Part shown: positions 1 to 10,629 of the stretch, one piece after another
How the letters are laid out: every line of letters begins with the position of its first letter
Position numbering within the stretch: the first letter of the stretch is position 1
Assembly: GCA_964609615.1 (NCBI GenBank)
Contig: CAZSRL010000027.1
Coordinates: 1-10,629 of the forward strand
Reading direction: 5' to 3'
DNA length: 10,629 bases
Origin: an uncultured Muribaculaceae bacterium
GTDB taxonomy: Bacteria > Bacillota_I > Bacilli_A > RF39 > UBA660
Made by a program: the position numbers and the translations under genes
Notes under the pieces: model-generated
What the model saw: the letters and a program-made list of their open reading frames with translations, nothing else
What the model was told of the DNA's origin: nothing
Databases searched by the model: none

Positions 1-2729
1 CCAGCCATTTTATCTCCAACACTCATTTTTCTTTTACTTGTTAAATAAATTCTTATTACTTTTGATACCCCAGATGGTAATTCATCGCTGTTTTCTTTTG
101 TAAATATTTTAATATCTTGAACTATTCCAGCACTTCCATGTGGAACACGTAATGAAGTGTCTCTTACTTCTCTTGTTTTTTCTCCAAATATTGCATGTAA
201 TAATTTTTCTTCACTACTTAATTCTTGTACTCCTTTTGGTGTAACTTTACCTACTAAAATATCATTTTCTTTTACTTCAGTACCAATTTTAATTATTCCA
301 TCTGAGTCAAGATTCTTACGAGCTTCTTCACTTACATTTGGAATATCCCTAGTGAATTCTTCAGGTCCAAGTTTAGTTTCTCTACATTCAACATCGTGTT
401 GTTCAATATGAAGTGATGTTAATACATCATCTCTTACAATTCTTTCATTCAATATTACAGCATCTTCATAGTTATAACCATTATAAGTCATGAACGCTAC
501 TACTAAGTTTTTACCAAGAGCAATTTCTCCTTTATCAGTAGAAGGTCCATCAGCAATAACCATTCCTTTTGTTACTTTGTCACCTTTTCTTACTATTGGT
601 TTTTGATTGTAACAAGTTTCTTGGTTACTTCTTTCATAATTGTATAAATTATATAAATCTTTTCCTTTTTCACGTTTTACAATTATTTGTTTTGAATCAA
701 CATAATCTACAACTCCATCAGCTTTAGCAACAACTACAACTCCAGAGTCCTTTGCTGCAACATGTTCAACACCAGTTGCTACATATGGAGCTTCGGCTCT
801 TAATAAAGGCACTGCTTGACGTTGCATATTTGCACCCATAAGTGCTCTTTTTGCATCGTCATGTTCCAAGAAAGGAATCATACTTGTAGTAATTGATACT
901 ATTTGTGAAGGTGCAACATCAACATAATCTATTTTTTCTCTCTCTACTATTAAATTATCTCCTTCAAATCTAGCAGGCACTTTTTCTTCTACTATTTCAT
1001 TTTTTGAATTAACATCTATTGTAGCTTGAGAAATATAATAATTTTCTTCTTCGTCAGCTGTCATATAAACAACTTCTTTTGTTAATTTTCCATTTGTTAC
1101 TTTTCTATATGGTGTCATAATAAAACCATATTCATTTACTTTTGCATAACTAGATAAACTAGTAATTAATCCAATATTTGGTCCTTCTGGTGTTTCAATA
1201 GGACAAATTCTTCCATAATGACTTAAATTAACGTCACGTACTTCCATACCTGCTCTATCTCTTGATAAACCACCAGGTCCAAGTGCACTTAATCTTCTTT
1301 TATCATTCATTTCACTCATTGGATTAGTTTGTTCCATAAATTTTGATAATTGACTACTTCCGAAGAACTCTTTTAAAGACGCTGTTACTGGTCTAATATT
1401 TATTAAACTTTTTGGTGTTACAGTTTCAATTTCTTGAGTTGTCATTTTTTCACGAATAACTCTTTCCATACGAGTTACACCAACTTTAAATTGATTTTGA
1501 ATTAATTCTCCACCTTGACGAACACGTCTATTTCCTAAATGATCTATTTCATCATAATTACCAATACCATAATGTAAATTGATATAATATGATATTGAAG
1601 CATACACATCACTTGTTGTAAGTCTTCTACTATCAATAGTAGGATCATTACCAATTACTTTTAAAACTTTATCACTTCCGTCATTAGCATATACTAAAAC
1701 TTCTTGAACTTTATTATAAGTATCAAGCTCATCATTTATTTTAACTTCTTTTAAAGCATATCCTTTTGCAAACAAGTCCTTTAATTCACTTAATTTTTCT
1801 TTTGTTACAGTTTCACCTTTTTTAACAATGATTTTATTTCCATCTTTTATATCCTGTGCTACTTTTTGGTTTAATAATCTTTCTAATACATTTAATTTTT
1901 TATTAAATTTATATCTACCAACTTTTGCTAAATCATATCTAAATTTATCAAAAAATCTAACAATTAATTGGTTTTTAGAACTATCAAGTGTAGCAGGTTC
2001 TCCAGGTCTTAATTTTTCATATATTTCTATTAAAGCTTCGTCTGTATTTTTTGTAGAATCTTTTGCAAAAGTATTATCTAACAATTCATCTTTACCAAAT
2101 ACATTTTCTATTTCTTCATTACTACTTAGTCCAAGTGCACGCAAAAATGTAGAAATAGGTACTTTCCTAGTTCTATCTATTCTAACATAAATAACACCAC
2201 GTGCATCAACTTCATATTCAAGCCAAGTTCCCTTTGTAGGAATCACTTCGCTAATTATAATATTTCTTCCATTTTTATCAATTTCACTTTTAAAATACAC
2301 ACTAGGAGATCTTACAAGTTGTGAGTTAATTACTCTTTCTGCTCCATTAATAATAAATGTACCAGTTTCTGTCATAAGTGGCATATCACCTAAAAATACT
2401 TCTTGCTCTTTTACTTCTCCTGTTTCATTGATATAAACCTTAGCATTAACTTTTAAAGGAGCTGCATAAGTAATTCTTCTTTCTTTAGCCTCTTTAATTG
2501 TATATCTAGGTTCTTCAAAGAAATAATCGCCAAACTCCAACGATAACGAACCAGAAAAGCTTTCAACTGGGAAAACATCATCAAATACCTCTTTTATTCC
2601 TTCATCCAAGAATTTTTTGTAACTGCTTTTTTGAATTTCCAACAAATCTGTTAATTCATAAACATTACGCATTTTAGAGAAATTTCTTCTCTCTCTATGG
2701 TCTCCAAACTTTTGTACTTTGTAAGCCAC
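1..2729 (-). CDS. rpoB: DNA-directed RNA polymerase beta subunit, N-terminal ~909 codons (3' end runs off the window at position 1)
   Basis: It is absent from the ORF track because there is no stop in the window. The minus-strand frame from GTG at 2729 (GGGGTGA RBS 4 nt upstream) stays open to position 3. My translation starts VAYKVQKFGDHRERRNFSKMRNVYELTDLLEIQKSSYKKFL. It contains GNRRVRQGGELIQNQF, LSALGPGGLSRDRAGMEVRDVNLSHYGRICPIETPEGPNIGLI and MGANMQRQAVPLL, and ends at the window edge with SVGDKMAG. These are hallmark RpoB motifs. Its position downstream of rplL plus the methyltransferase is the canonical one. Confidence 0.95.
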   Translation of the reverse strand, partial: MAYKVQKFGDHRERRNFSKMRNVYELTDLLEIQKSSYKKFLDEGIKEVFDDVFPVESFSGSLSLEFGDYFFEEPRYTIKEAKERRITYAAPLKVNAKVYINETGEVKEQEVFLGDMPLMTETGTFIINGAERVINSQLVRSPSVYFKSEIDKNGRNIIISEVIPTKGTWLEYEVDARGVIYVRIDRTRKVPISTFLRALGLSSNEEIENVFGKDELLDNTFAKDSTKNTDEALIEIYEKLRPGEPATLDSSKNQLIVRFFDKFRYDLAKVGRYKFNKKLNVLERLLNQKVAQDIKDGNKIIVKKGETVTKEKLSELKDLFAKGYALKEVKINDELDTYNKVQEVLVYANDGSDKVLKVIGNDPTIDSRRLTTSDVYASISYYINLHYGIGNYDEIDHLGNRRVRQGGELIQNQFKVGVTRMERVIREKMTTQEIETVTPKSLINIRPVTASLKEFFGSSQLSKFMEQTNPMSEMNDKRRLSALGPGGLSRDRAGMEVRDVNLSHYGRICPIETPEGPNIGLITSLSSYAKVNEYGFIMTPYRKVTNGKLTKEVVYMTADEEENYYISQATIDVNSKNEIVEEKVPARFEGDNLIVEREKIDYVDVAPSQIVSITTSMIPFLEHDDAKRALMGANMQRQAVPLLRAEAPYVATGVEHVAAKDSGVVVVAKADGVVDYVDSKQIIVKREKGKDLYNLYNYERSNQETCYNQKPIVRKGDKVTKGMVIADGPSTDKGEIALGKNLVVAFMTYNGYNYEDAVILNERIVRDDVLTSLHIEQHDVECRETKLGPEEFTRDIPNVSEEARKNLDSDGIIKIGTEVKENDILVGKVTPKGVQELSSEEKLLHAIFGEKTREVRDTSLRVPHGSAGIVQDIKIFTKENSDELPSGVSKVIRIYLTSKRKMSVGDKMA

Positions 2730-2801
2730 ATCTTCACCCCAATTTCTAAATTTTAAAAGAACATAAACTTTAAATATAAAAGTAAACGTTGCCAATTTAC
2801 A

Positions 2802-2830
2802 ATTATACTAAAGATTATTCCTCAAGTCAA
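2802..2830 (-). promoter_or_regulatory. Near-consensus sigma-A/sigma-70 promoter upstream of rpoB
   Basis: The minus strand reads TTGACT (2830-2825), an exact 17-nt spacer TGAGGAATAATCTTTAG, then TATAAT (2807-2802), about 70 nt upstream of the rpoB GTG. This is a sequence match only, with no transcript data. Confidence 0.55.
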
Positions 2831-2832
2831 CA

Positions 2833-3417
2833 TTATTTTGACTTAATTATGTAAAACCCTTTACTTTTATTCATTATTTCAACTTTATATTGTTTTTCTA
2901 ATAATTTTATAAAAGATTTTGCTCCACCATCTTTTCTAATAACGCACCAAAGCTCTCCATTATTTGTTAAATACTTTTTTGAATTTATTAAAATATTTTC
3001 AACTACAATTTTCCCTGCTCTAATGGGTGGATTAGTTATTATTAAATCATATTTATTATTTATTTTTTCATAGCAATTACTTTCAATTGCTTCTCCATTT
3101 ACTTTATTTAATTTAATATTTTCTAAAGACAAATGAACACTTCTTTTATTTATATCACATAACATAACTTTACAATTTTTAAGTTTTCCAATAACAATAC
3201 CTATAACACCATATCCACACCCTAAATCAAGTGCATTTGATATTTCAGCATTGGTAGATAGATATGTATCTAATAGTAATTTAGTTCCATAATCAACCTT
3301 ATTTTTAGAAAACACTCCATTATCAGACATAAATGTAAAATCAACGTCCCCTATATTATAATTTAATGTCTTTATATTACTTTTTAAATTTTCATTACTA
3401 GTAAAATAATGATTCAT
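2833..3417 (-). CDS. Class I SAM-dependent methyltransferase, RsmC/RsmD-like small rRNA methyltransferase (YbxB-like position between rplL and rpoB)
   Basis: 194-aa ORF. LDLGCGYGVIG matches SAM-binding motif I, and IITNPPIRAGK matches the NPP[I/F/H] catalytic motif of N2-G/N6-A methyltransferases. Bacillus-type genomes carry a gene of this kind at the same rplL-(methyltransferase)-rpoB position. The substrate is not inferable from sequence. Confidence 0.8.
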   Translation of the reverse strand: MNHYFTSNENLKSNIKTLNYNIGDVDFTFMSDNGVFSKNKVDYGTKLLLDTYLSTNAEISNALDLGCGYGVIGIVIGKLKNCKVMLCDINKRSVHLSLENIKLNKVNGEAIESNCYEKINNKYDLIITNPPIRAGKIVVENILINSKKYLTNNGELWCVIRKDGGAKSFIKLLEKQYKVEIMNKSKGFYIIKSK

Positions 3418-3446
3418 TTTGCCTCTTTCTATATCTCAATAAACGT

Positions 3447-3464
3447 AAAAAAGCCCAAAGGGCT
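3447..3464 (-). terminator. Intrinsic terminator/attenuator downstream of rplL
   Basis: The minus strand reads AGCCC-TTT-GGGCT followed by TTTTTT, 10 nt after the rplL stop. The stem is short (5 bp, GC-rich), so termination is likely partial, as is typical between rplL and rpoB. Confidence 0.55.
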
Positions 3465-3474
3465 ATTTTACATA

Positions 3475-3843
3475 TTAAACTAATTCTACAGTTGCGCCAA
3501 CTTCTTCAAGTTTTGCTTTAAGTTCATTTGCTTCGTCTGATGAAATATTTTCTTTAATATTTCCTCCAGCATCAGCTATATCTTTTGCTTCTTTAAGTCC
3601 TAAACCAGTAACTTCTCTTACAATTTTAATAACTTGTAATTTTTGTCCTCCTGCTTCTTTAAGAACAACAGTTTTCTTTGCATCTCCTGCTTCTTCTGCT
3701 GCCGCTGCTGGAGCTGCTGCTACTGCTACTGCACTTGGATCAACTCCAAATTCTTCTTTCATTGCATCTACAAGTTCTTTAACTTCTAGAATTGTCATTT
3801 CTTTAAGACCGTTAATAAAGTCTTCTTTTTTAATTTTTGCCAT
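3475..3843 (-). CDS. rplL: 50S ribosomal protein L7/L12
   Basis: 122 aa. It has an N-terminal dimerisation helix, an Ala/Pro/Glu hinge ([12 protein letters not shown]) and the C-terminal domain [22 protein letters not shown]...[28 protein letters not shown] upstream. Confidence 0.96.
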
Positions 3844-3858
3844 TATTAATCTCCTCCT

Positions 3859-4353
3859 TTAATTTTTTTCTAACCCTTCAGAATAAAGGTTAAGTGCAAT
3901 ACTTAAATTTTTAACATGTTCTATCATACCACCTGCTAACATAGTAAGAAGTCCTTCCATATTAGGTATTGACGCATAAGTTTTAATAAGCTCTTGATCT
4001 GCTTGTTCTCCATCAATCATTCCAACTCTAACTTCTAGTGCTGGATGCTTTTTAGCAAATTCACTTACTACTTTAATAGGTTCTATAATATCACTAGAGA
4101 AAAGATAAGCATTTGGCCCTTCCATGTATTCATCAAGGGCTATTTTATTTTCTTTTAATGCTAAAGCTACTAAAGTATTTTTATAAATTTTATAGTTAGC
4201 ATTAATTTCTCTTAGTTCTTTTCTAAGTAAAGATACTTCATCAACTTTTAATCCTTGATAATTAAGAATTAAAAATGTTTTAGAATCTTTTATATTATTT
4301 GAAATTTCTTTTACTACTTCTTTTTTAAGACTAAGACTCTTTTCGCTTGCCAT
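3859..4353 (-). CDS. rplJ: 50S ribosomal protein L10
   Basis: 164 aa. The N-terminal KKEVVKEISNNIKDSKTFLILNYQGLKVDEVSLLRKELRE matches the L10 pattern. It lies immediately upstream of rplL, with a GAAGGAGGAAG RBS. Confidence 0.93.
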   Translation of the reverse strand: MASEKSLSLKKEVVKEISNNIKDSKTFLILNYQGLKVDEVSLLRKELREINANYKIYKNTLVALALKENKIALDEYMEGPNAYLFSSDIIEPIKVVSEFAKKHPALEVRVGMIDGEQADQELIKTYASIPNMEGLLTMLAGGMIEHVKNLSIALNLYSEGLEKN

Positions 4354-4482
4354 ACACTTCCTCCTTCATATATCGATAAAAGCTTTCCCAAAGGAAAGCT
4401 TATAATCATTTTTATAAGTTCCTCGGTAGGATTTTTAAATTATTTAATCCCTACTGTCTTTGGTACTCGTTTTACGAACATT
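4354..4482 (-). promoter_or_regulatory. rplJ 5' leader, probable L10(L12)4-binding ribosomal-protein leader RNA
   Basis: 129-nt untranslated leader between the promoter and rplJ. The minus strand carries ACCAAAGACA-GTAGGGAT...ATCCTAC-CGAGG, a bulged hairpin (4426-4454) flanked by purine-rich strands. A perfect 9-bp hairpin AAGCTTTCC-TTTG-GGAAAGCTT (4380-4401) follows, just before the RBS. This layout resembles the Firmicute L10 leader as I recall it. It has not been tested with a covariance model. Confidence 0.5.
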
Positions 4483-4511
4483 ATTATATAACAATTATTT
4501 TTAATTGTCAA
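4483..4511 (-). promoter_or_regulatory. Consensus sigma-A promoter for rplJ-rplL
   Basis: The minus strand reads TTGACA (4511-4506, overlapping the last codons of rplA), an exact 17-nt spacer ATTAAAAATAATTGTTA, then TATAAT (4488-4483). Confidence 0.6.
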
Positions 4512-5196
4512 AAGAATTTTTATCTACTCTAATACCAGGTCCCATAGTACTTGAAACACTAATATTTTTTATATAAACGCCTTTTGAACCAGTTGGTTTA
4601 TTTTTGATAATTTCATTTACTAATGCAATTAAATTTTCTTCTAATTTTTTTTCAGTAAATGAAACCTTTCCAATAACTACATGTACATTAGCATATGTAT
4701 CAGTTTTGTATTCTATCATTCCTTTTTTGATATTTGATACTGCCATTTCTACATCAGTAGTTACTGTTCCAGTTTTAGGGTTAGGCATTAATCCTTTTGG
4801 CCCTAAAACTTTACCAATTTTACCTAAACTAGCCATCATATCTGGTGTCGCTACGATAACATCAAAATCGAACCAACCATCTTTTTCGATTTTTTTGATC
4901 ATATCATCGTCTCCAACAAAATCAGCTTTAGCAGCTTTTGCCTCAGCAACTTTAGTTTTAGTAATAACTAATACTTTAGGATTTTTACCTGTACCATTTG
5001 GAAGTACAAGTGATCCTCTTAATTGTTGATCAGATTTTTTTGTATCTAAATTTAATTTTATTGCAACATCTACAGTTGCATCAAATTTAGTTTTACTTAA
5101 TGATTTTGCTAATTTTATCGCTTCTTTATAAGAATATAAGTTTTTCTTATCTACTTTTTTTGAAGCTTCCACATAGTTCTTTCCGAATTTTTTCAT
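4501..5196 (-). CDS. rplA: 50S ribosomal protein L1
   Basis: 231 aa. The motifs KFDATVDVAIKLNLD, QQLRGSLVLPNGTGK, FDVIVATPDMM and LGPKGLMPNPKTGTVT are typical of L1. AAGGAGGT RBS. It follows rplK. Confidence 0.96.
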   Translation of the reverse strand: MKKFGKNYVEASKKVDKKNLYSYKEAIKLAKSLSKTKFDATVDVAIKLNLDTKKSDQQLRGSLVLPNGTGKNPKVLVITKTKVAEAKAAKADFVGDDDMIKKIEKDGWFDFDVIVATPDMMASLGKIGKVLGPKGLMPNPKTGTVTTDVEMAVSNIKKGMIEYKTDTYANVHVVIGKVSFTEKKLEENLIALVNEIIKNKPTGSKGVYIKNISVSSTMGPGIRVDKNSFDN

Positions 5197-5241
5197 TTTT
5201 TTACCTCCTTACGTGGTTATAAGTTAAGCGGATTATTTAAT

Positions 5242-5865
5242 TTATTCTTCTTTATTTTCTTCTTGATCTTCTTCTGTTTCAGATGATTCTTCTTCTGTTG
5301 CTTCTTCAGTTGATGTAGCTGCTGCTTCTGCCATTTCTTTAGCTTCTTCTTCCATTTGTTCTAGTTCAGCATCAAGCTTAGCCATTTCTTTTTCTGCTTC
5401 TGCTGCTTCTGCTGCTTGTTCAGCAAGCTCTGCATCATTAACTCCTTTTACTGCTATTCCCATATTTCTTGCTGTTCCTTCAATTGTTGACATAGCTTCT
5501 TCAAGAGTATAAGCATTTAAGTCTGGTAATTTTATTTCAGCTATCTTTTTTAAATCATCTTTCGTAATTGTTGCAACTATTTCATTAGCTCCTTTTACAG
5601 AACCTTTTTTAATTTTTGCTGCTTTAAGTAATAAAGTAGCAGTTGGTGGAGTTTTAAGTACGAAGTCAAATGTTCTATCTTCATAAACAGATATTTCAAC
5701 TGGTATTACATCTCCCATTTTATCTCTAGTTGCATCATTGTATCTAGTACAAAACTCTTGCAAATTGATTCCTGCTGGTCCAAGCACAGTCCCAACTGGT
5801 GGAGCTGGTGTTGCTTTACCTGCTTCAATTTGAAGTTTTACTTTTTGCATTATTGCTTTTGCCAC
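5242..5865 (-). CDS. rplK: 50S ribosomal protein L11 with an atypical acidic C-terminal extension of ~67 aa
   Basis: GTG start with a GGAGGTG RBS. Residues 1 to about 140 match L11 ([58 protein letters not shown]). Residues 141-207 are an in-frame Glu/Ala-rich tail. The same frame continues without interruption. Confidence 0.9.
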
Positions 5866-6003
5866 GAAAACACCTCCTATATTTTTAGATTTAATTTTTC
5901 GCGAGTGGTTATATCGCTATTATTCTTTCCGCTCCCACTTACTCACTTACATATAATAATATGCAAGCTGACTAAATGATAATAACATAAAAGATATAAA
6001 ATT

Positions 6004-7017
6004 TCAATGATTTTCTACTCTATTTAATAACTTATTAACATCTTGTAAGTTGCTATATTTAAAATAACCTTTATAGCTACTTATACTTTTATCATTCATA
6101 TATTTTATTTTTTTCTTTATTCTTCTTTTTGTTTTATTACATATTTTAATTATTAACTTTTTATTTTTTAATATAAAAGTATATCCTAAAAAACTAAAAC
6201 CATTATTAACATTATATATATTAGTTTTACTATTTAAATTAAGTTTTAATTTATTTAACTCTATATTTATATAATATAAACATTTTTTTAAATAATCTTT
6301 ATCATTACTAAATAATAAAAAATCATCCATATATCTAACATAACACTTTATTCTTAACTTTTCTTTTATATAATGATCAATATCATTTAAATAATATAAA
6401 GCAAGTATTTGACTACTCATATTACCTATAGGAAGACCTTTATTATACTTATATAAAGTAATATCTTTATTATTATACTTTAATATATTTTTATTAACAT
6501 AAGTTTTATTAGTACTATCAATAATATTAAATAATATCTTTTCTATTTCACTATCTAATTTAAGATTTAATAATTTTTCTTTTAAAATATCATGATCAAT
6601 ATTATAAAAAAACTTTCTAATATCACACTTTAAAACATATACATTACCATTTAATTTTAAACTATTTATAAAGCCTTTAACAAGCTTTATTCCTTCACCA
6701 CTACCTTTTCCCTCGCGACTTGCTATATTAGTGGATATAAGCCTTTTAAATATGTTTTCCTTTAAATAATATTCACTTATATAATAATTAACTATTTTAT
6801 CAATTAACTTTTCACTCATTATTACTCTACACTTAGGGTCACTTATTAAAAATATATTATAATACCCATGACTATATAAATCACTTTCTAATATATTTTT
6901 AATATTACAAACATTACTATTATAAAATAACTCAAACATAAATAACTTTTCTTTGTGTTTAGTATTTCTTTTAATATCTAAATAAACTTTATTTAATTTT
7001 TCAATATCAACTACCAC
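6004..7017 (-). CDS. DGR-type reverse transcriptase
   Basis: 337 aa. RT motif 4 reads GLPIGNMSSQILALYYLNDIDHYI, the [I/L/V]GxxxSQ signature that distinguishes DGR RTs from group II intron and retron RTs. Motif 5 reads YVRYMDDFLLF (YxDD catalytic box). GFSFLGY lies downstream. The size is typical of DGR RTs and there is no maturase or endonuclease domain. The annotated start is GTG and overlaps the upstream ORF by 11 nt with no obvious SD, so the exact start is uncertain. Confidence 0.87.
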   Translation of the reverse strand: MVVDIEKLNKVYLDIKRNTKHKEKLFMFELFYNSNVCNIKNILESDLYSHGYYNIFLISDPKCRVIMSEKLIDKIVNYYISEYYLKENIFKRLISTNIASREGKGSGEGIKLVKGFINSLKLNGNVYVLKCDIRKFFYNIDHDILKEKLLNLKLDSEIEKILFNIIDSTNKTYVNKNILKYNNKDITLYKYNKGLPIGNMSSQILALYYLNDIDHYIKEKLRIKCYVRYMDDFLLFSNDKDYLKKCLYYINIELNKLKLNLNSKTNIYNVNNGFSFLGYTFILKNKKLIIKICNKTKRRIKKKIKYMNDKSISSYKGYFKYSNLQDVNKLLNRVENH

Positions 7018-7345
7018 TTTTTAATAAACCATAACTAATCTTTCTAATTTCAATAATAAAATTAACTATCACTTCATACTTTCTTTTATTAATAATTTTT
7101 CTTTTATAACAAATACCCATATAATAATCAATCATACTTAAATTAACAATAAAGTCTTTTAAATTCTTTTCTTTGACTTTACCTATATTACATTTATAAT
7201 AAAATAATAATTCAATACTTTTATATAAACAAACCTCTAAATTACTTTTCAAAACAACTTCCTTTTTAGGACAATTAACTAATACTTTATTAATATAATC
7301 ATTTGTTTTTTTAACTTTATTTAATAATATAAAACTATAATTCAT
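7007..7345 (-). CDS. avd: Avd-like accessory variability determinant (small basic four-helix-bundle protein)
   Basis: 112 aa, Lys/Arg-rich. The pattern YINKVLVNCPKKEVVLKSNLEVCLYKSIELL...KRKIINKRKYEVIVNFIIEIRKISYGLLKS parallels Avd-family proteins (a P-K/R-K/E motif in helix 1-2 and a C-terminal EI.K...G..K). It sits immediately upstream of the RT and is translationally coupled to it. The similarity was judged by eye only. Confidence 0.6.
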   Translation of the reverse strand: MNYSFILLNKVKKTNDYINKVLVNCPKKEVVLKSNLEVCLYKSIELLFYYKCNIGKVKEKNLKDFIVNLSMIDYYMGICYKRKIINKRKYEVIVNFIIEIRKISYGLLKSGS

Positions 7346-7739
7346 TTATAAAATCCTTAATTTTACTATAATTATTAATATCCTTAACTAAACACTTATG
7401 CACTAAATTATTTAATAAATCTTCCTTATACTCAATATCGTAAAATAACTTAGCCATACTTAAATACCTATTATAATTATTAATATCTACTTTATAATAA
7501 ACAATATTATTCTTAGGATAACTAACTAATACACAAATACCACTATTATTTAACCCTAATATTACACTTTCAAGACTATTATCTGGAAAACCAACTATCA
7601 TATCATGTATTTTATACTTAAATATTTCATGTATTACTAACGCATCATCACCAAAACTTCTATAAAACTTTCCACAATTAACAATTACAACATACTTTTT
7701 ATTATTACTTTTCAAACTAAAATAAATACTCTTAAACAT
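7335..7739 (-). CDS. MutS domain I-like (mismatch-binding-domain-like) accessory protein
   Basis: 134 aa. [29 protein letters not shown]...[24 protein letters not shown] lines up with the E. coli MutS N-terminus [29 protein letters not shown]...[30 protein letters not shown] RBS 8 nt upstream of the ATG. It is the first gene of the three-gene operon. Confidence 0.5.
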   Translation of the reverse strand: [134 protein letters not shown]

Positions 7740-7762
7740 TAATACTTCACCTATCTATAATA

Positions 7763-7797
7763 ATAGTATCTCTCTCTCTCTCTCTCTCTCGTGTCAA
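7763..7797 (-). promoter_or_regulatory. Candidate promoter of the accessory/RT operon with an over-long spacer formed by the (GA)11 tract
   Basis: The minus strand reads TTGACA (7797-7792), then C + (GA)11 (23 nt), then TACTAT (7768-7763). TATTAT variants lie just downstream, followed by AGGTGA and the ATG at 7739. The -35 is consensus, but the spacing is 6 nt longer than the 17 nt seen in the three other promoters in this window. Confidence 0.3.
7769..7790. repeat. Perfect dinucleotide microsatellite, (TC)11 on the plus strand and (GA)11 on the minus strand
   Basis: Read directly: tctctctctctctctctctctc at 7769-7790. It is the only such tract in the window. Confidence 0.97.
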
Positions 7798-7807
7798 GAG
7801 TTTTTAG

Positions 7808-7849
7808 AAAAAAAATAACAAAAAAAGTACTAAACAAAATGTTTAGTAC
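7808..7849 (-). terminator. Intrinsic terminator ending the TR-containing transcript
   Basis: The minus strand has a perfect 10-bp stem GTACTAAACA-TTT-TGTTTAGTAC (7849-7827) followed by TTTTTTTGTTATTTTTTTT (7826-7808). It terminates only the minus strand, since the plus-strand side lacks a T-run after the stem. Confidence 0.6.
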
Positions 7850-8046
7850 GACCTAGTTATAGTCCTATAAATTAATAAAATATTAAGTCATAAAACATCT
7901 AAAATCATATATTTAGGTTTCCCATGGATAAATTTTGTTTCCAATCTATTTATATAGATTATTTATATCATACAATATAAATTACTTCCTCACAATATTA
8001 GCCTTAACCAATATTTCTCGGTTTAGTATTACTATTTATAGTAGGA

Positions 8047-8160
8047 ATCTGGGAAGACGCCGTTCGAGTTGTTCAGATTGTTGTTGTTCAGGTTACCATC
8101 ACTATTCACGTTCATCGCATTCACATTACCATTAGAGACATTCCAATTGTTAGGAGACAT
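8047..8160 (-). repeat. DGR template repeat (TR), non-coding
   Basis: This 114-nt stretch aligns without gaps to 8345-8458 (offset 298). In the VR frame it reads MSPNNWNVSNGNVNAMNVNSDGNLNNNNLNNSNGVFPD, with 16 AAY codons. The coding strand has 38 adenines. It is not inside any credible ORF. Confidence 0.88.
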
Positions 8161-8180
8161 CCATTCTATCAAATTTACCC

Positions 8181-8244
8181 AAAAATCAGCCCTCGGTGGC
8201 TTACCTCCCACCGATCGCCGTCAAAAAACAAGGAGTTGTTTTTT
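8181..8244 (-). terminator. Two hairpins downstream of the target gene stop (possible terminator and/or DGR RNA 5' structure)
   Basis: On the minus strand there is an AT-only hairpin, AAAAAACAA-CTCC-TTGTTTTTT (8244-8223). A GC-rich hairpin TCGGTGG-GAGGTAAG-CCACCGA (8214-8193) follows, then GGGCTGATTTTTGGG. The GC-rich patch is conspicuous in an AT-rich context. Its function is not established. Confidence 0.35.
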
Positions 8245-8263
8245 GATTCCCTCTTTACTTAGT

Positions 8264-9811
8264 TTACTGTACTACATATGGATTAGCACTCGTTCCAGGG
8301 TTCTCCACGTTAACAGTTGCCAGTGTTTCAGCGGAGAGCGATATAACTGGGAAGACGCCGCGCGAGTAGTCCAGATCGTAGCTGCGCAGGCGACCATCAC
8401 TATTCACTTCCACCGCAGGCACACTACCATCAGCGACACGCCAATTGAAAGGAGACATAGTCCATCTAGATACTCCTGATTTATAAAGATAATATGATGA
8501 ATTTCCAGTACCATATATTCCTCCTGCAAATGCTACTTCATCTCCAGTTAATAATCCTACATTTAAATTATATATATCATTTCCTTCACTTGTAGATGTT
8601 GGACATATAAAACTAGGACTAGCAGATGCTACTGGATATAATCTATTTCTTACTCCAAAACAATAATAATCTGTTCCTGTTGTGTATGTTCTATCATTAC
8701 AAAACTTTGTTGGTACTACTTTACTTGAATAGTTTGTATTATTTCCTATATTTGTGTTATACCATGTTTCTACATTTCCTTTTATTGTTGAATTTCCATA
8801 TGTTGCATATGTTATTGCTGTTTCCCATGTTTTACTTGAATAATTTGTATTCCATGCACTATCTATTCCTGTTGTTGTATTAAGTACCAGTCTTACACTT
8901 CCGTCTCCATTGATTCTGACTACTCTCCATAGCATTGGATCTCCTGCACTATGTATAACTTCCGAACATTCTTGTGCTGATTCATTATAATATTCATCAT
9001 CAATACATTCACTTAAAGAACTTGCTTCCCAAACTTGCCAATTATATAATGTTTCTGTATAATTTGGTCCAAATGTTACATAGTTATCTGGTGCTGTCCC
9101 TCTAAAGTAATATGTTTTATCTCCATAGTCATCATTTGGACCACTAATTAATCCTTCATCGGTTTTTGATACTGCTCTTCCTGGATATGTTGTATATGTT
9201 GTTGGTGGGTTATTTGTTTTTAGCATGTCTGCTAATGTTGGTTCACTTGATGTTGATGCATTTACATCTAGTACTTCTATCTTTCCACTTATACTTTTTC
9301 CTTGGTTTTCATTTTGATTTTCATTCCTACTTAGAAATCTAAAATGTAGTGTATATGTTTGAGTTACTCCTGTTGCTATTGTTGCATTACTTATTATACT
9401 TACATGGTCTCCACTATTTGGTAGTTGTGTTTCTGATAGTGTTGAACCAGAGTTATTACTTGTTACACTATATACCATATCTGTTTTGGTTGTGAATGTA
9501 TTTGTTAGCGTTGCCCAGTTTATATTATAGTGTACTTCCCCGTCTCCTGTATTAGTTACAGTAAATGTTTTTTCTCCTGTCCACCCTGGCATTATATTAT
9601 CTTCGTTATATTCTGGTCCTCCATTATATGTTATAGAAAGGTTTGCAGTTGTTACTGTTACTCCTTTTGCTGTATCATTTCCACTTACTGTTGCTGAAAA
9701 CCATGCATATGATACTCCTGCTATTGCTATTATTACCACTAGTGTTAATACTGCTATTGTTTCTTTTTTATGTGTTTTTAGTTTATTTAAAAGTTTTTTT
9801 ACTTTATCCAT
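8264..9811 (-). CDS. DGR variable (target) protein, secreted or surface-located, with the VR in its C-terminal ligand-binding-type domain
   Basis: 515 aa with an AAAGGAGAAG RBS. The N-terminus KKETIAVLTLVVIIAIAGVSYAWFSAT resembles a SipW-dependent/TasA-camelysin-type signal peptide. A Thr/Asn-rich beta-type region follows (IMPGWTGEKTFTVTNTGDGEV). The C-terminal part contains WRVVRINGDGSVRLV, VGLLTGDEVAFAG and RWTMSP...GVFPVISL. The VR encodes residues about 452-489. Confidence 0.85.
   Translation of the reverse strand: MDKVKKLLNKLKTHKKETIAVLTLVVIIAIAGVSYAWFSATVSGNDTAKGVTVTTANLSITYNGGPEYNEDNIMPGWTGEKTFTVTNTGDGEVHYNINWATLTNTFTTKTDMVYSVTSNNSGSTLSETQLPNSGDHVSIISNATIATGVTQTYTLHFRFLSRNENQNENQGKSISGKIEVLDVNASTSSEPTLADMLKTNNPPTTYTTYPGRAVSKTDEGLISGPNDDYGDKTYYFRGTAPDNYVTFGPNYTETLYNWQVWEASSLSECIDDEYYNESAQECSEVIHSAGDPMLWRVVRINGDGSVRLVLNTTTGIDSAWNTNYSSKTWETAITYATYGNSTIKGNVETWYNTNIGNNTNYSSKVVPTKFCNDRTYTTGTDYYCFGVRNRLYPVASASPSFICPTSTSEGNDIYNLNVGLLTGDEVAFAGGIYGTGNSSYYLYKSGVSRWTMSPFNWRVADGSVPAVEVNSDGRLRSYDLDYSRGVFPVISLSAETLATVNVENPGTSANPYVVQ
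8345..8458 (-). repeat. DGR variable repeat (VR) within the 3' end of the target gene
   Basis: The VR encodes MSPFNWRVADGSVPAVEVNSDGRLRSYDLDYSRGVFPV. It differs from TR at 24 of 114 nt, and 22 of those are at TR adenines (A->G 11, A->C 6, A->T 5). All 22 fall at codon positions 1 or 2. The 3' end CGGCGTCTTCCCAG (8360-8347) is identical to TR (8062-8049), and homology is lost right after it, which is IMH-like. Confidence 0.88.
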
Positions 9812-9836
9812 ACTTCTTCTCCTTTATTATATGTTA

Positions 9837-9865
9837 ATTATATTATCTTTTATTTTTTATGTCAA
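9837..9865 (-). promoter_or_regulatory. Consensus sigma-A promoter of the DGR target gene
   Basis: The minus strand reads TTGACA (9865-9860), an exact 17-nt spacer TAAAAAATAAAAGATAA, then TATAAT (9842-9837), about 25 nt upstream of the ATG at 9811. Confidence 0.65.
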
Positions 9866-9889
9866 TCTTAACCTCGTGTGTGTGGGATT

Positions 9890-9912
9890 AAAAAAAAGTG
9901 TATTTCTACACT
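9890..9912 (-). terminator. Weak intrinsic terminator after nusG
   Basis: The minus strand reads AGTGTA-GAAA-TACACT (9912-9897, overlapping the nusG TAG) followed by a T-run of 7-8 nt. The stem is only 6 bp and AT-rich, so termination is probably leaky. Confidence 0.4.
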
Positions 9913-10450
9913 AATTTTTACTTATTTGCATTAAATCTACTTCAACTGGAGTTTCTTGCCCAAATAAATCTATAAGTACATTTAATTTTTGGTTTTCCAA
10001 GTCAATATATTCAACTTTACCGCTCATACCATTGAATGGACCATCAATAATAGTTACAGAGTCTCCAACATTTATTTCTGTTTCAATGTCAACTCTACTC
10101 ATACCCATATTGTTTAGAATTTTATCTATTTCTTGAGGTAATAATGGAGTTGGTTTTGCACCTTTACCACTTGATCCTATAAATCCAGTTACTCCTGGAG
10201 TATTTCTTACCACATACCAAGCTTCGTCGCTCATAACCATTTCTACAATTACATAACCCGGAAACATCTTTTTAGTTTTTTCTTTTTTAACACCATCTTT
10301 AATTTCTATTTCTGTACTTTCTGGTACTATAACTCTGAAAATGTTATTTTCCATTCCCATAGACTCAGTTCTCATTTTTAAATTTTCAGCTACTTTTGTT
10401 TCATGACCAGAATAAGTATTAACTACATACCATAACTTTTGTTCTTCCAT
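9911..10450 (-). CDS. nusG: Transcription termination/antitermination factor NusG
   Basis: 179 aa. The NGN domain reads WYVVNTYSGHETKVAENLKMR...FPGYVIVEMVMSDEAWYVVRNTPGVTGFIGS. The KOW domain reads VGDSVTIIDGPFNGMSGKVEYID. The ATG overlaps the secE stop (TAATG). Confidence 0.96.
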   Translation of the reverse strand: MEEQKLWYVVNTYSGHETKVAENLKMRTESMGMENNIFRVIVPESTEIEIKDGVKKEKTKKMFPGYVIVEMVMSDEAWYVVRNTPGVTGFIGSSGKGAKPTPLLPQEIDKILNNMGMSRVDIETEINVGDSVTIIDGPFNGMSGKVEYIDLENQKLNVLIDLFGQETPVEVDLMQISKN

Positions 10451-10629
10451 TATTTCATCGACTCCCTTAAAAATGCAAATATTGTATCTAAACTATAAAA
10501 GAAAAGTGCAAAAAATATTATAAGCGATATACACACAATAGAATATTTTACTAATTCTTTCCCCTTAGGCCAATGTGTTTTAGAGCCTTCTTTTTTCACT
10601 CCTAAAAAGAATGTTTTTATTTTACCCAT
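10450..10629 (-). CDS. secE: Preprotein translocase subunit SecE (59 aa; the ATG lies exactly at the window edge)
   Basis: It is not in the ORF track, probably because it is short. My translation of the minus strand from 10629 is MGKIKTFFLGVKKEGSKTHWPKGKELVKYSIVCISLIIFFALFFYSLDTIFAFLRESMK, then TAA at 10452-10450. The W-P-K-G-K-E-L motif, the single TM segment and the length match Bacillus-type SecE. An upstream start outside the window cannot be excluded. Confidence 0.85.
   Translation of the reverse strand: MGKIKTFFLGVKKEGSKTHWPKGKELVKYSIVCISLIIFFALFFYSLDTIFAFLRESMK

Follow-up and report, generated by a model that had tools for sequence, protein, structure and literature searches.

We analysed a 10,629-nt stretch of DNA (contig CAZSRL010000027.1 of assembly GCA_964609615.1, positions 1 to 10,629), hereafter the window, from an uncultured low-GC gut bacterium. 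Read along its minus strand, the window carries secE, nusG (9911-10450), the gene of a target (variable) protein, a template repeat (TR), the genes of a MutS-like protein (MSL), Avd and a reverse transcriptase (RT), and then rplK, rplA, an L10 leader, rplJ, rplL, a methyltransferase gene and rpoB. The secE-nusG-rplKAJL-rpoB cluster is otherwise conserved, and the cassette inserted between nusG and rplK has the anatomy expected of a diversity-generating retroelement (DGR). All genes here lie on the minus strand, hence T on the plus strand corresponds to A on the coding strand. The repeats and open reading frames (ORFs) of the cassette are as follows.

8264-9811, minus strand: gene of the target protein, 515 aa, with an N-terminal signal peptide or anchor, a beta-sandwich weakly resembling TasA/camelysin and a C-terminal DUF6273-like domain
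8347-8458, minus strand: variable repeat (VR), in frame in the ORF 8264-9811 and encoding aa 452-489 of the 515-aa target, MSPFNWRVADGSVPAVEVNSDGRLRSYDLDYSRGVFP(V)
8347-8359 (TR copy 8049-8061), minus strand: GC-rich 3' end common to VR and TR, GGCGTCTTCCCAG, a candidate homing boundary resembling an initiation of mutagenic homing (IMH) site
8049-8160, minus strand: TR, A-rich, non-coding and intergenic, with 16 AAY codons
7335-7739, minus strand: MSL accessory gene, 134 aa, MutS domain I alone (Pfam MutS_I, 35.7 bits against a cutoff of 20.6)
7007-7345, minus strand: avd, 112 aa (Pfam bAvd, E 7e-10; NCBIfam DivGenRetAVD, E 5e-9; PHROG 'Avd protein of DGR', E 5e-9)
6004-7017, minus strand: gene of a DGR-type reverse transcriptase of 337 aa, bearing LPIGNMSSQ (the IGxxxSQ motif) and YMDD (RVT_1, E 2e-20; phrog_1423, E 2e-69)

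A repeat scan returned one long direct repeat in the window, 8049-8160 against 8347-8458 (112 nt, 79% identity, offset 298). The first-pass annotation had aligned 8047-8160 to 8345-8458 by hand and had read the differences as the signature of mutagenic retrohoming. Our programmatic gap-free alignment reproduced its count of 24 mismatches in 114 nt. In the per-base table, 22 of the 24 mismatches fell on plus-strand T, that is, coding-strand A, and the remaining two on one plus-strand G and one plus-strand A. Overall, 22 of the 38 TR adenines differed, against 2 of the 76 other bases (Fisher one-sided p = 2.3e-11), and only 1/29 coding-strand T sites was changed. The adenine substitutions from TR to VR comprised 11 A>G, 6 A>C and 5 A>T. 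They were confined to codon positions 1 (13) and 2 (9) and altered 14 of the 16 AAY codons of the TR, giving F, R, D, S, P, E, R, R, S, Y, D, D, Y and R, exactly as first listed. The codon table also bore out that no stop codon was created in the VR, and the GC content was indeed higher in the VR (56%) than in the TR (41%). The two differences at other bases were TCT>GCT in repeat codon 9 and the third base of AAC>GAA. The earlier estimate of 15^16 (about 7e18) possible variants was arithmetically right for NNY codons and slightly conservative, and the other TR adenines would raise the figure to roughly 1e20-1e21.

The limits of the repeat needed one correction. Its extent stood at 8049-8160/8347-8458, and the last of the 24 mismatches (GAT in the TR, GTT in the VR, plus-strand positions 8048/8346) is not a mutagenised adenine. 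The mismatch is identical in all four VR alleles described below and sits where the contexts of TR and VR part, so we regard it as the edge of homology. At the 3' junctions, the TR passes directly into the RNA element that follows it (CCAG/ATTCC), and the VR into the rest of the gene (CCAG/TTAT). With the strict limits there are 23 mismatches, 21 of them at A (p = 8e-11). Downstream of the shared GC-rich 13-mer GGCGTCTTCCCAG the VR and TR sequences diverge, and the TR/VR pairs of related loci end at the same CCAG boundary. By analogy with the Bordetella IMH, the 13-mer is a candidate for an IMH-like homing boundary.

The annotation had further suggested asking whether polymorphic VR sites in populations coincide with the TR adenines, and had named variation unrelated to those adenines as a refutation; across four alleles from four samples the sites did coincide. 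We recovered contigs from other samples through the 90% cluster of the target protein and by exact-protein look-ups of nusG, avd and MSL. The same kind of look-up had no record for the RT, for L1 or for L11 with either of two start choices, and scanning JGI metagenome contigs for the exact pattern of the VR 3' flank returned 0 hits. One contig, L081, was identical to the window over 4049 nt, VR included, in an independent Logan assembly. Three others, L083, L086 and L085, were 95.5%, 96.0% and 98.0% identical to the window over 2.1-2.5 kb and carried different VRs. Counted against the window TR, mismatches at A and at other bases numbered 22 and 2 in the window, 17 and 0 in L083, 22 and 1 in L085, and 20 and 5 in L086, the last from a contig with a coverage of 0.78. 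Altogether 41 VR positions varied among the four alleles, at 33 of the 38 A sites and 8 of the 76 others (p = 6e-16), and 36 of the 38 TR adenines were substituted in at least one of them. The two non-A differences of the window VR were private to the window. The TRs of L085 and L086 each lay 1 nt from the window TR, while their VRs differed. Although the strains are only 2-4.5% divergent, their VRs differ at 17-23 sites, almost all of them adenines. Because the TR is near-constant while the VRs differ at so many sites, homing has been much faster than background divergence.

The enzyme genes lie about 0.3-2 kb downstream of the repeats on the same strand. By its motif 4 ([I/L/V]GxxxSQ) and YxDD motifs, the ORF at 6004-7017 is classed as a DGR-type RT. 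Its best match among solved structures was a 328-aa protein, 8ub7 (entries 8ub7-8ube, E 2e-20), whose IPIGSLTSQ and YMDD align with LPIGNMSSQ and YMDD of the window. The database calls this protein just 'Reverse transcriptase'; judging by its length and sequence, we take it to be the Bordetella bRT. All three ORFs (RT, Avd, MSL) are intact, and avd overlaps both the MSL and the RT gene by 11 nt, as if the three were translationally coupled. The MSL gene is kept at the same position in about 20 related loci. In an alignment with 17 orthologues and residues ~10-110 of E. coli MutS, the G-x-F-Y and G-F/I-P motifs (GFP/GIP) were kept. The protein retains the mismatch-stacking Phe of MutS, with the Glu of Phe-x-Glu replaced, and contains no other MutS domains. 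It is plausible that MSL binds the mismatched heteroduplex of cDNA and VR. Neither MSL nor the target protein had a match in NCBIfam or PHROGs, and no cassette ORF of at least 80 aa gave an HRDC hit. We also observed that the MSL-avd-RT region (6004-7739) has 13-23% GC against 30-35% in the flanking ribosomal-protein genes, and that the TR, VR and spacer have 41-56%.

Around the TR we found a set of predicted RNA, hairpin and promoter elements.

9837-9865, minus strand: promoter-like site of the target gene, TTGACA-17-TATAAT, matching the consensus at 12/12 positions, 26 nt before the start codon
8221-8246, minus strand: hairpin just past the target stop codon, TCAAAAAACAA-CTCC-TTGTTTTTTGA, with a conserved hairpin at the same place in relatives
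8187-8220, minus strand: GC-rich hairpin upstream of the TR, CGGCGATCGGTGGGAGGTAAGCCACCGAGGGCTG, present in both the minimum-free-energy and the centroid fold
8171-8182, minus strand: upstream strand of a long-range duplex bracketing the TR and the spacer-like (Sp-like) element, TTGGGTAAATTT, 11-23 nt upstream of the TR
7936-8048, minus strand: Sp-like structured RNA directly 3' of the TR, ATTCCTAC..., folding into two hairpins with covariation and carrying GAGGAAGTAAT and AGATTGGAAACAA as invariant boxes
7924-7935, minus strand: downstream strand of the long-range duplex, AAATTTATCCAT, just past the conserved AGATTGGAAACAA box
7808-7849, minus strand: terminator-like hairpin (10-bp stem, 7849-7827) and T-run at the end of the target and TR module
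7753-7797, minus strand: promoter-like region ahead of the MSL-avd-RT operon, comprising TTGACA, C, (GA)11 (7769-7790), TACTATTATTATAGAT, then AGGTGA-ATG of MSL

The fold of the Sp-like element was derived from a 16-sequence alignment and has 27 pairs, with 96.8% of the cells paired and compensatory changes at 11 pairs. None of 500 shuffles matched the percentage paired, the compensatory cells or the covariation score, and 1/500 matched the number of compensatory pairs; when the partners were slid by 1-3 columns, 19-46% of the cells were paired. A pattern search recovered the element in 22 loci; among the RT relatives the matches fell in the closest ~20, within L001-L031, and none in L032-L080. 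The bracketing strands 8171-8182 and 7924-7935 pair at 11/12 positions. In 12 of 14 loci such a duplex is pairable at 11-12 of 12 positions with compensatory changes, and its sequences differ from locus to locus (TTGGGTAAATTT/AAATTTATCCAT in the window, AAAGGGCAGTCT/AGGCTGGTCTTT in L003, AGAGGTCAATCT/AGATTGATCTTT in L005). Together these elements define an RNA core of about 260 nt (7924-8182) that is supported by covariation and absent from Rfam: at E <= 1, Rfam returned only the L10 leader in the window and no family for the RNA flanking the TR. The hairpin at 8221-8246 is a candidate for either a terminator or a homing cruciform.

Taken together, these data strongly indicate that the locus is a chromosomal DGR of the MSL and Avd class, placed between nusG and rplK, which diversifies the C-terminus of a secreted protein. 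We assign this reading a probability of roughly 0.93. The recipient repeat lies at the 3' end of an ORF, where it encodes the final structured stretch of the protein, the donor is non-coding, RT, Avd and MSL are encoded downstream, and population variation falls at the TR adenines, in agreement with the origin by mutagenic retrohoming first proposed for the pair. The features of a DGR that can be judged in silico are present, as are those that define the MSL class. For an IMH-type boundary and cruciform the signs are mixed, with a shared GC-rich 13-mer after which the copies diverge, and next to the VR a DNA fold no better than that of shuffles. The element was apparently active recently.

Several observations weigh against this reading. 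VR variation is known between strains (95.5-98% identical) and not within one sample. The two non-A differences of the window VR call for ordinary mutation since the last homing event, or for RT errors at other bases. Both the function of MSL and the nature of the ligand are inferred here. At the DNA level, the fold of 108 nt across the VR 3' end and its downstream sequence was no better than that of shuffles (z = +0.87), a hairpin standing ~100 nt further on, past the stop codon. In the RT-operon promoter region, the TTGACA and TACTAT/TATTAT hexamers are 21-23 nt apart with either (GA)10 or (GA)11, and this promoter may be weak or off. Finally, L085 carries a target and TR module without adjacent MSL-avd-RT genes.

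Some of these points would equally suit a fossil DGR, in which past mutagenic retrohoming made the pair, the element has since fallen silent and the VR is merely inherited. The hexamer spacing in both (GA)n alleles and the non-A substitutions absent from other alleles fit that explanation, and so do the identical VRs of the window and L081, although the number of independent data sets behind these two is uncertain. Nevertheless, the intact and overlapping ORFs, the intact RNA elements, and TRs that lie 1 nt off in each of two other contigs while the VRs of little-diverged strains differ at 17-23 sites, nearly all adenines, make a silent element unlikely. The assembly itself could also be at fault: a VR assembled as a consensus or chimera from a mixed population would show a set of 24 differences that no single cell carries. 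Many related contigs end inside or beside the target gene, and L086, with its low coverage, has five non-A differences. On the other hand, L081 reproduces the window over 4049 nt including the VR in an independent assembly, the VR frame is intact without a stop codon, and a mosaic VR would still be the product of a DGR; we consider an artefact of this kind very improbable. A segmental duplication followed by neutral decay or gene conversion, its adenine bias due to composition rather than reverse transcription, might be invoked in a very AT-rich genome (22-35% GC as computed) where selection on the coding copy could create an asymmetry from AT to GC, and we give it next to no credence: the per-base table refutes it (22/38 A against 1/29 T on the coding strand), the A-only pattern recurs in three more alleles and dozens of related loci, the DGR genes adjoin, and ordinary decay of a duplicate is excluded as the origin of the differences.

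For the preferred reading, a chromosomal and apparently recently active DGR, the steps that would link the observed anatomy to the observed A-specific variation can be pictured by analogy with Bordetella phage BPP-1. An RNA from ~8182 to ~7924, comprising the upstream strand, the TR, the Sp-like element and the downstream strand, would be transcribed either by read-through from the target promoter at 9865-9837 or from a promoter of its own, ending at the terminator at 7849-7827. RT-Avd would bind this structured RNA, and cDNA synthesis would be primed in cis. The RT would then copy the TR with misincorporation opposite adenines, and the cDNA would replace the VR, the shared GC-rich GGCGTCTTCCCAG setting the 3' limit of the transfer. 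The mismatched cDNA/VR heteroduplex would probably be handled by the MutS-domain-I protein. The outcome might be up to ~1e19-1e21 variants of the ligand-binding face in a C-terminal domain of DUF6273 type.

Like the prototype BPP-1 DGR (mtd-avd-TR-brt), the window has an adenine-specific TR/VR pair with the VR at the target's 3' end, an Avd, an RT carrying IGxxxSQ/YMDD and a GC-rich 3' end common to both repeats; in both systems structured RNA follows the TR, and sequences before and after the TR pair into a duplex. By contrast, the window element is chromosomal and not phage-borne, its order is target-TR-MSL-avd-RT with the TR before avd, it has an extra MutS-domain-I gene, and its target is a secreted protein with TasA-like and DUF6273-like parts instead of Mtd. 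Moreover, no significant hairpin directly follows the VR, where BPP-1 has its cruciform. For the Bordetella element, Handa et al. (bioRxiv 10.1101/2023.10.23.563531) showed that the RNA on both sides of the TR wraps around RT-Avd and holds a TR:Sp duplex in place for cis-priming, and that polymerisation is halted by a duplex formed between distal sequences from the two sides. Among 278 Avd-containing DGRs, they predicted downstream stem-loops together with such a duplex in 207. The elements flanking the TR in the window fit this description of Avd-containing DGR RNA, with the bracket duplex corresponding to their cPRT-stop duplex.

Within the published classes, Architecture D comprises DGRs in which small (112-283 aa) MSL proteins occur with avd and never with HRDC, and is said to include the Legionella DGR (Wu et al. 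2018, NAR 46:11, PMC5758913). The window matches it with a 134-aa MSL, an adjacent avd and no HRDC gene. It departs from the published description in its host, an uncultured low-GC gut Bacilli or 'Tenericutes'-like metagenome-assembled genome (MAG), in its site within the nusG-rplK cluster, and in the terminator and the promoter-like segment with a simple sequence repeat (SSR), absent in relatives, that lie between the TR and the RT operon. DGRs are well known, and our result is a confirmation and not a discovery, adding a DGR to a class already described. Its value lies in a clean and compact example from poorly studied, uncultured gut Bacilli with reduced genomes, in the population evidence for adenine-targeted variation, in the RNA core of about 260 nt, and in a MutS-domain-I accessory protein with a putative part in retrohoming.

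The target belongs to a family of about 500-aa proteins, nearly all unnamed. Its beta-sandwich spans ~aa 50-182, and the DUF6273-like C-terminus, which bears the VR, ~aa 190-515. For the N-terminal part, Peptidase_M73 (PF12389) scored 22.0 bits on the target against a cutoff of 22.5, while 23 of 63 homologues matched (best E 8e-9). A profile of the target family was marginal against the TasA chains 5of1 and 8aur (E 0.05-0.06) and matched no solved DGR variable protein among the PDB chains, and Foldseek placed the target against the TasA fibre 8aur with a probability of 0.98 but a template-modelling (TM) score of 0.15-0.29. Thus the N-terminus weakly matches a TasA/camelysin-like secreted scaffold.

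The target itself had no hit to DUF6273 (PF19789), falling below the Pfam threshold, and 5 of 63 homologues matched. Because the full-length model gave only weak beta-sandwich matches in the PDB and was uninformative for the VR domain, we modelled the last 326 aa (8267-9244, minus strand) separately, with a predicted local distance difference test score (pLDDT) of 88 and a predicted TM score (pTM) of 0.88. The best viral matches of this model were DUF6273 proteins (Foldseek probability 1.0, E 7e-6 to 7e-4), and the best PDB match was the IgA peptidase 9qa6 of Thomasclavelia ramosa (E 4e-5, probability 1.0, TM 0.32), below which the PDB ranks held weak C-type-lectin hits only. The modelled fold therefore strongly resembles a DUF6273-type variable domain, with membership of the family by sequence unproven. 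In the Faecalibacterium prophages Lelie, CP11, Roos and Pioen, the VR maps to the DUF6273 C-terminal end (PMC11792537). By its fold, the variable domain is therefore of a type already known from DGR targets. The VR of the window holds the same position, and our C-terminal model matches DUF6273 phage proteins; the difference is that here the domain is fused to a TasA/camelysin-like module and a signal peptide in a cellular protein, whereas the prophage targets are phage tail or decoration proteins. The target is most likely an adhesin or receptor-binding protein, and a secreted TasA-like scaffold with a variable domain of DUF6273 type points to adhesion or ligand capture as the function being diversified. 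As a separate matter, the match to 9qa6 raises the possibility that the T. ramosa IgA peptidase, a protease of gut Bacilli, holds a DUF6273-like domain.

Comparison of the window with L083 and L086 also brought out dense clusters of non-synonymous changes outside the VR, at target codons 209-223, 260-273 and 316-334. They include Y209V, A213E, V214N, K216V and S223E, as well as I316T, D317Y, S325Q, K327T and T328D. Since no TR matches these patches, their variability is independent of the DGR.

The (GA)n tract of the RT-operon promoter region is itself variable. It reads (GA)10 in L082 (219-239), which comes from a different sample and agrees with the window at every other position over 1036 nt, giving two length values from three contigs. 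A tract with n = 8 would bring the hexamer spacing to 17 nt. Relatives are without the GA-containing segment, and their MSL gene begins about 20 nt past the Sp element. No dinucleotide tract of this kind was found in the relatives, only G10-12 tracts, which occur in AT-rich related DGR loci at L012:44-55, L019:5710-5719, L023:348-359, L025:288-297 and L029:413-422. By slipped-strand changes in its length, the (GA)n tract may act as a switch or a rheostat of the DGR enzymes. In SSR promoter phase variation (Neisseria nadA and porA, Haemophilus fimbriae) a length-variable tract likewise lies between -35-like and -10-like hexamers; here, in contrast, both lengths give a non-optimal spacing to a putative promoter. 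We know of no report of SSR promoter control for a DGR, and our literature search found no SSR-type promoter control of a DGR reported.

An RT scan with one genome per species returned 80 related loci, making 81 sources with the window. The closest RT relatives (46-54% identity) came from ~20 MAGs of uncultured gut Bacilli, 'Tenericutes' and Clostridium sp. CAG, and the target-TR-MSL-avd-RT order recurs in about 20 gut Bacilli MAG loci. An A-biased repeat pair of their own was present in 49 of the 81 sources. Viral RT relatives reached at most 38% identity, and by these comparisons the element is classed as a chromosomal lineage of gut Bacilli. The neighbours (secE, nusG, rplKAJL, rpoB) and the distance of the viral RTs led us to dismiss a prophage origin. 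No tRNA gene that could mark an integration site was found. As none of the 80 related loci has nusG or L11/rplK beside its DGR, the insertion site between nusG and rplK seems to be specific to this lineage.

The block from promoter through target, TR and Sp-like element to terminator (plus-strand coordinates 9896 to ~7815, 2.08 kb) recurs at 98% identity in L085:340-2418. There it is flanked by the 3' end of an ftsH-like gene and by a DUF5698 gene, with no nusG upstream, and the edges of the shared block lie at T-runs (TTTTTTTAATCCC... and ...GTACTTTTTTTGTTAT). Because L085 carries the target and TR unit without MSL-avd-RT, this unit is separable from the enzyme unit, and it appears to be movable.

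Tandem TR-like units were seen in several relatives, at L002:480-3823 (seven units), L015:6679-7154, L012:3159-3914, L026:511-1103 and L014:6509-7119 (two or more). In L002 all seven units, and in L014 both, have an Sp-like element of their own behind them. For L012, L015 and L026 the pattern search located the element after the last unit only; the first L015 unit is followed by ATTCCTACTAC with the full pattern absent, and the earlier L012 and L026 units by TTTCCAAT... The units differ from each other at both A and non-A positions, and the resident VR matches a single unit at all non-A positions in L002 (unit 5, with 15 mismatches at A and none elsewhere) and L015 (unit 2, with 17 and none). 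The arrays may serve as libraries of templates or supply templates to distant targets.

A broader scheme would join these features: two separable modules, one holding the target with its TR-RNA and the other MSL-avd-RT, hypermutation that varies in phase through (GA)n, an RT serving dispersed modules in trans, and the TR-Sp arrays of relatives as template libraries. We hold this scheme to be doubtful. If the tract sets the -35/-10 spacing, it would be a contingency locus that turns a diversity generator on and off. The separable modules, the SSR in the RT-operon promoter region, the TR arrays and the nusG-rplK insertion would all bear on how DGR activity is regulated.

Two further observations concern the surroundings of the cassette. 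Many related MAG contigs (L002, L005, L008, L010, L026) terminate within the target gene or a short way upstream of it, which is consistent with assembly breaks at heterogeneous VRs or at the TR/VR repeats. The L11 gene of the window (5242-5865) encodes a C-terminal extension of ~65 aa that is highly acidic and rich in Glu and Ala; against the NCBIfam model PRK14539, 'L11/unknown domain fusion protein', the L11 protein scored 166 bits, below the cutoff of 310.

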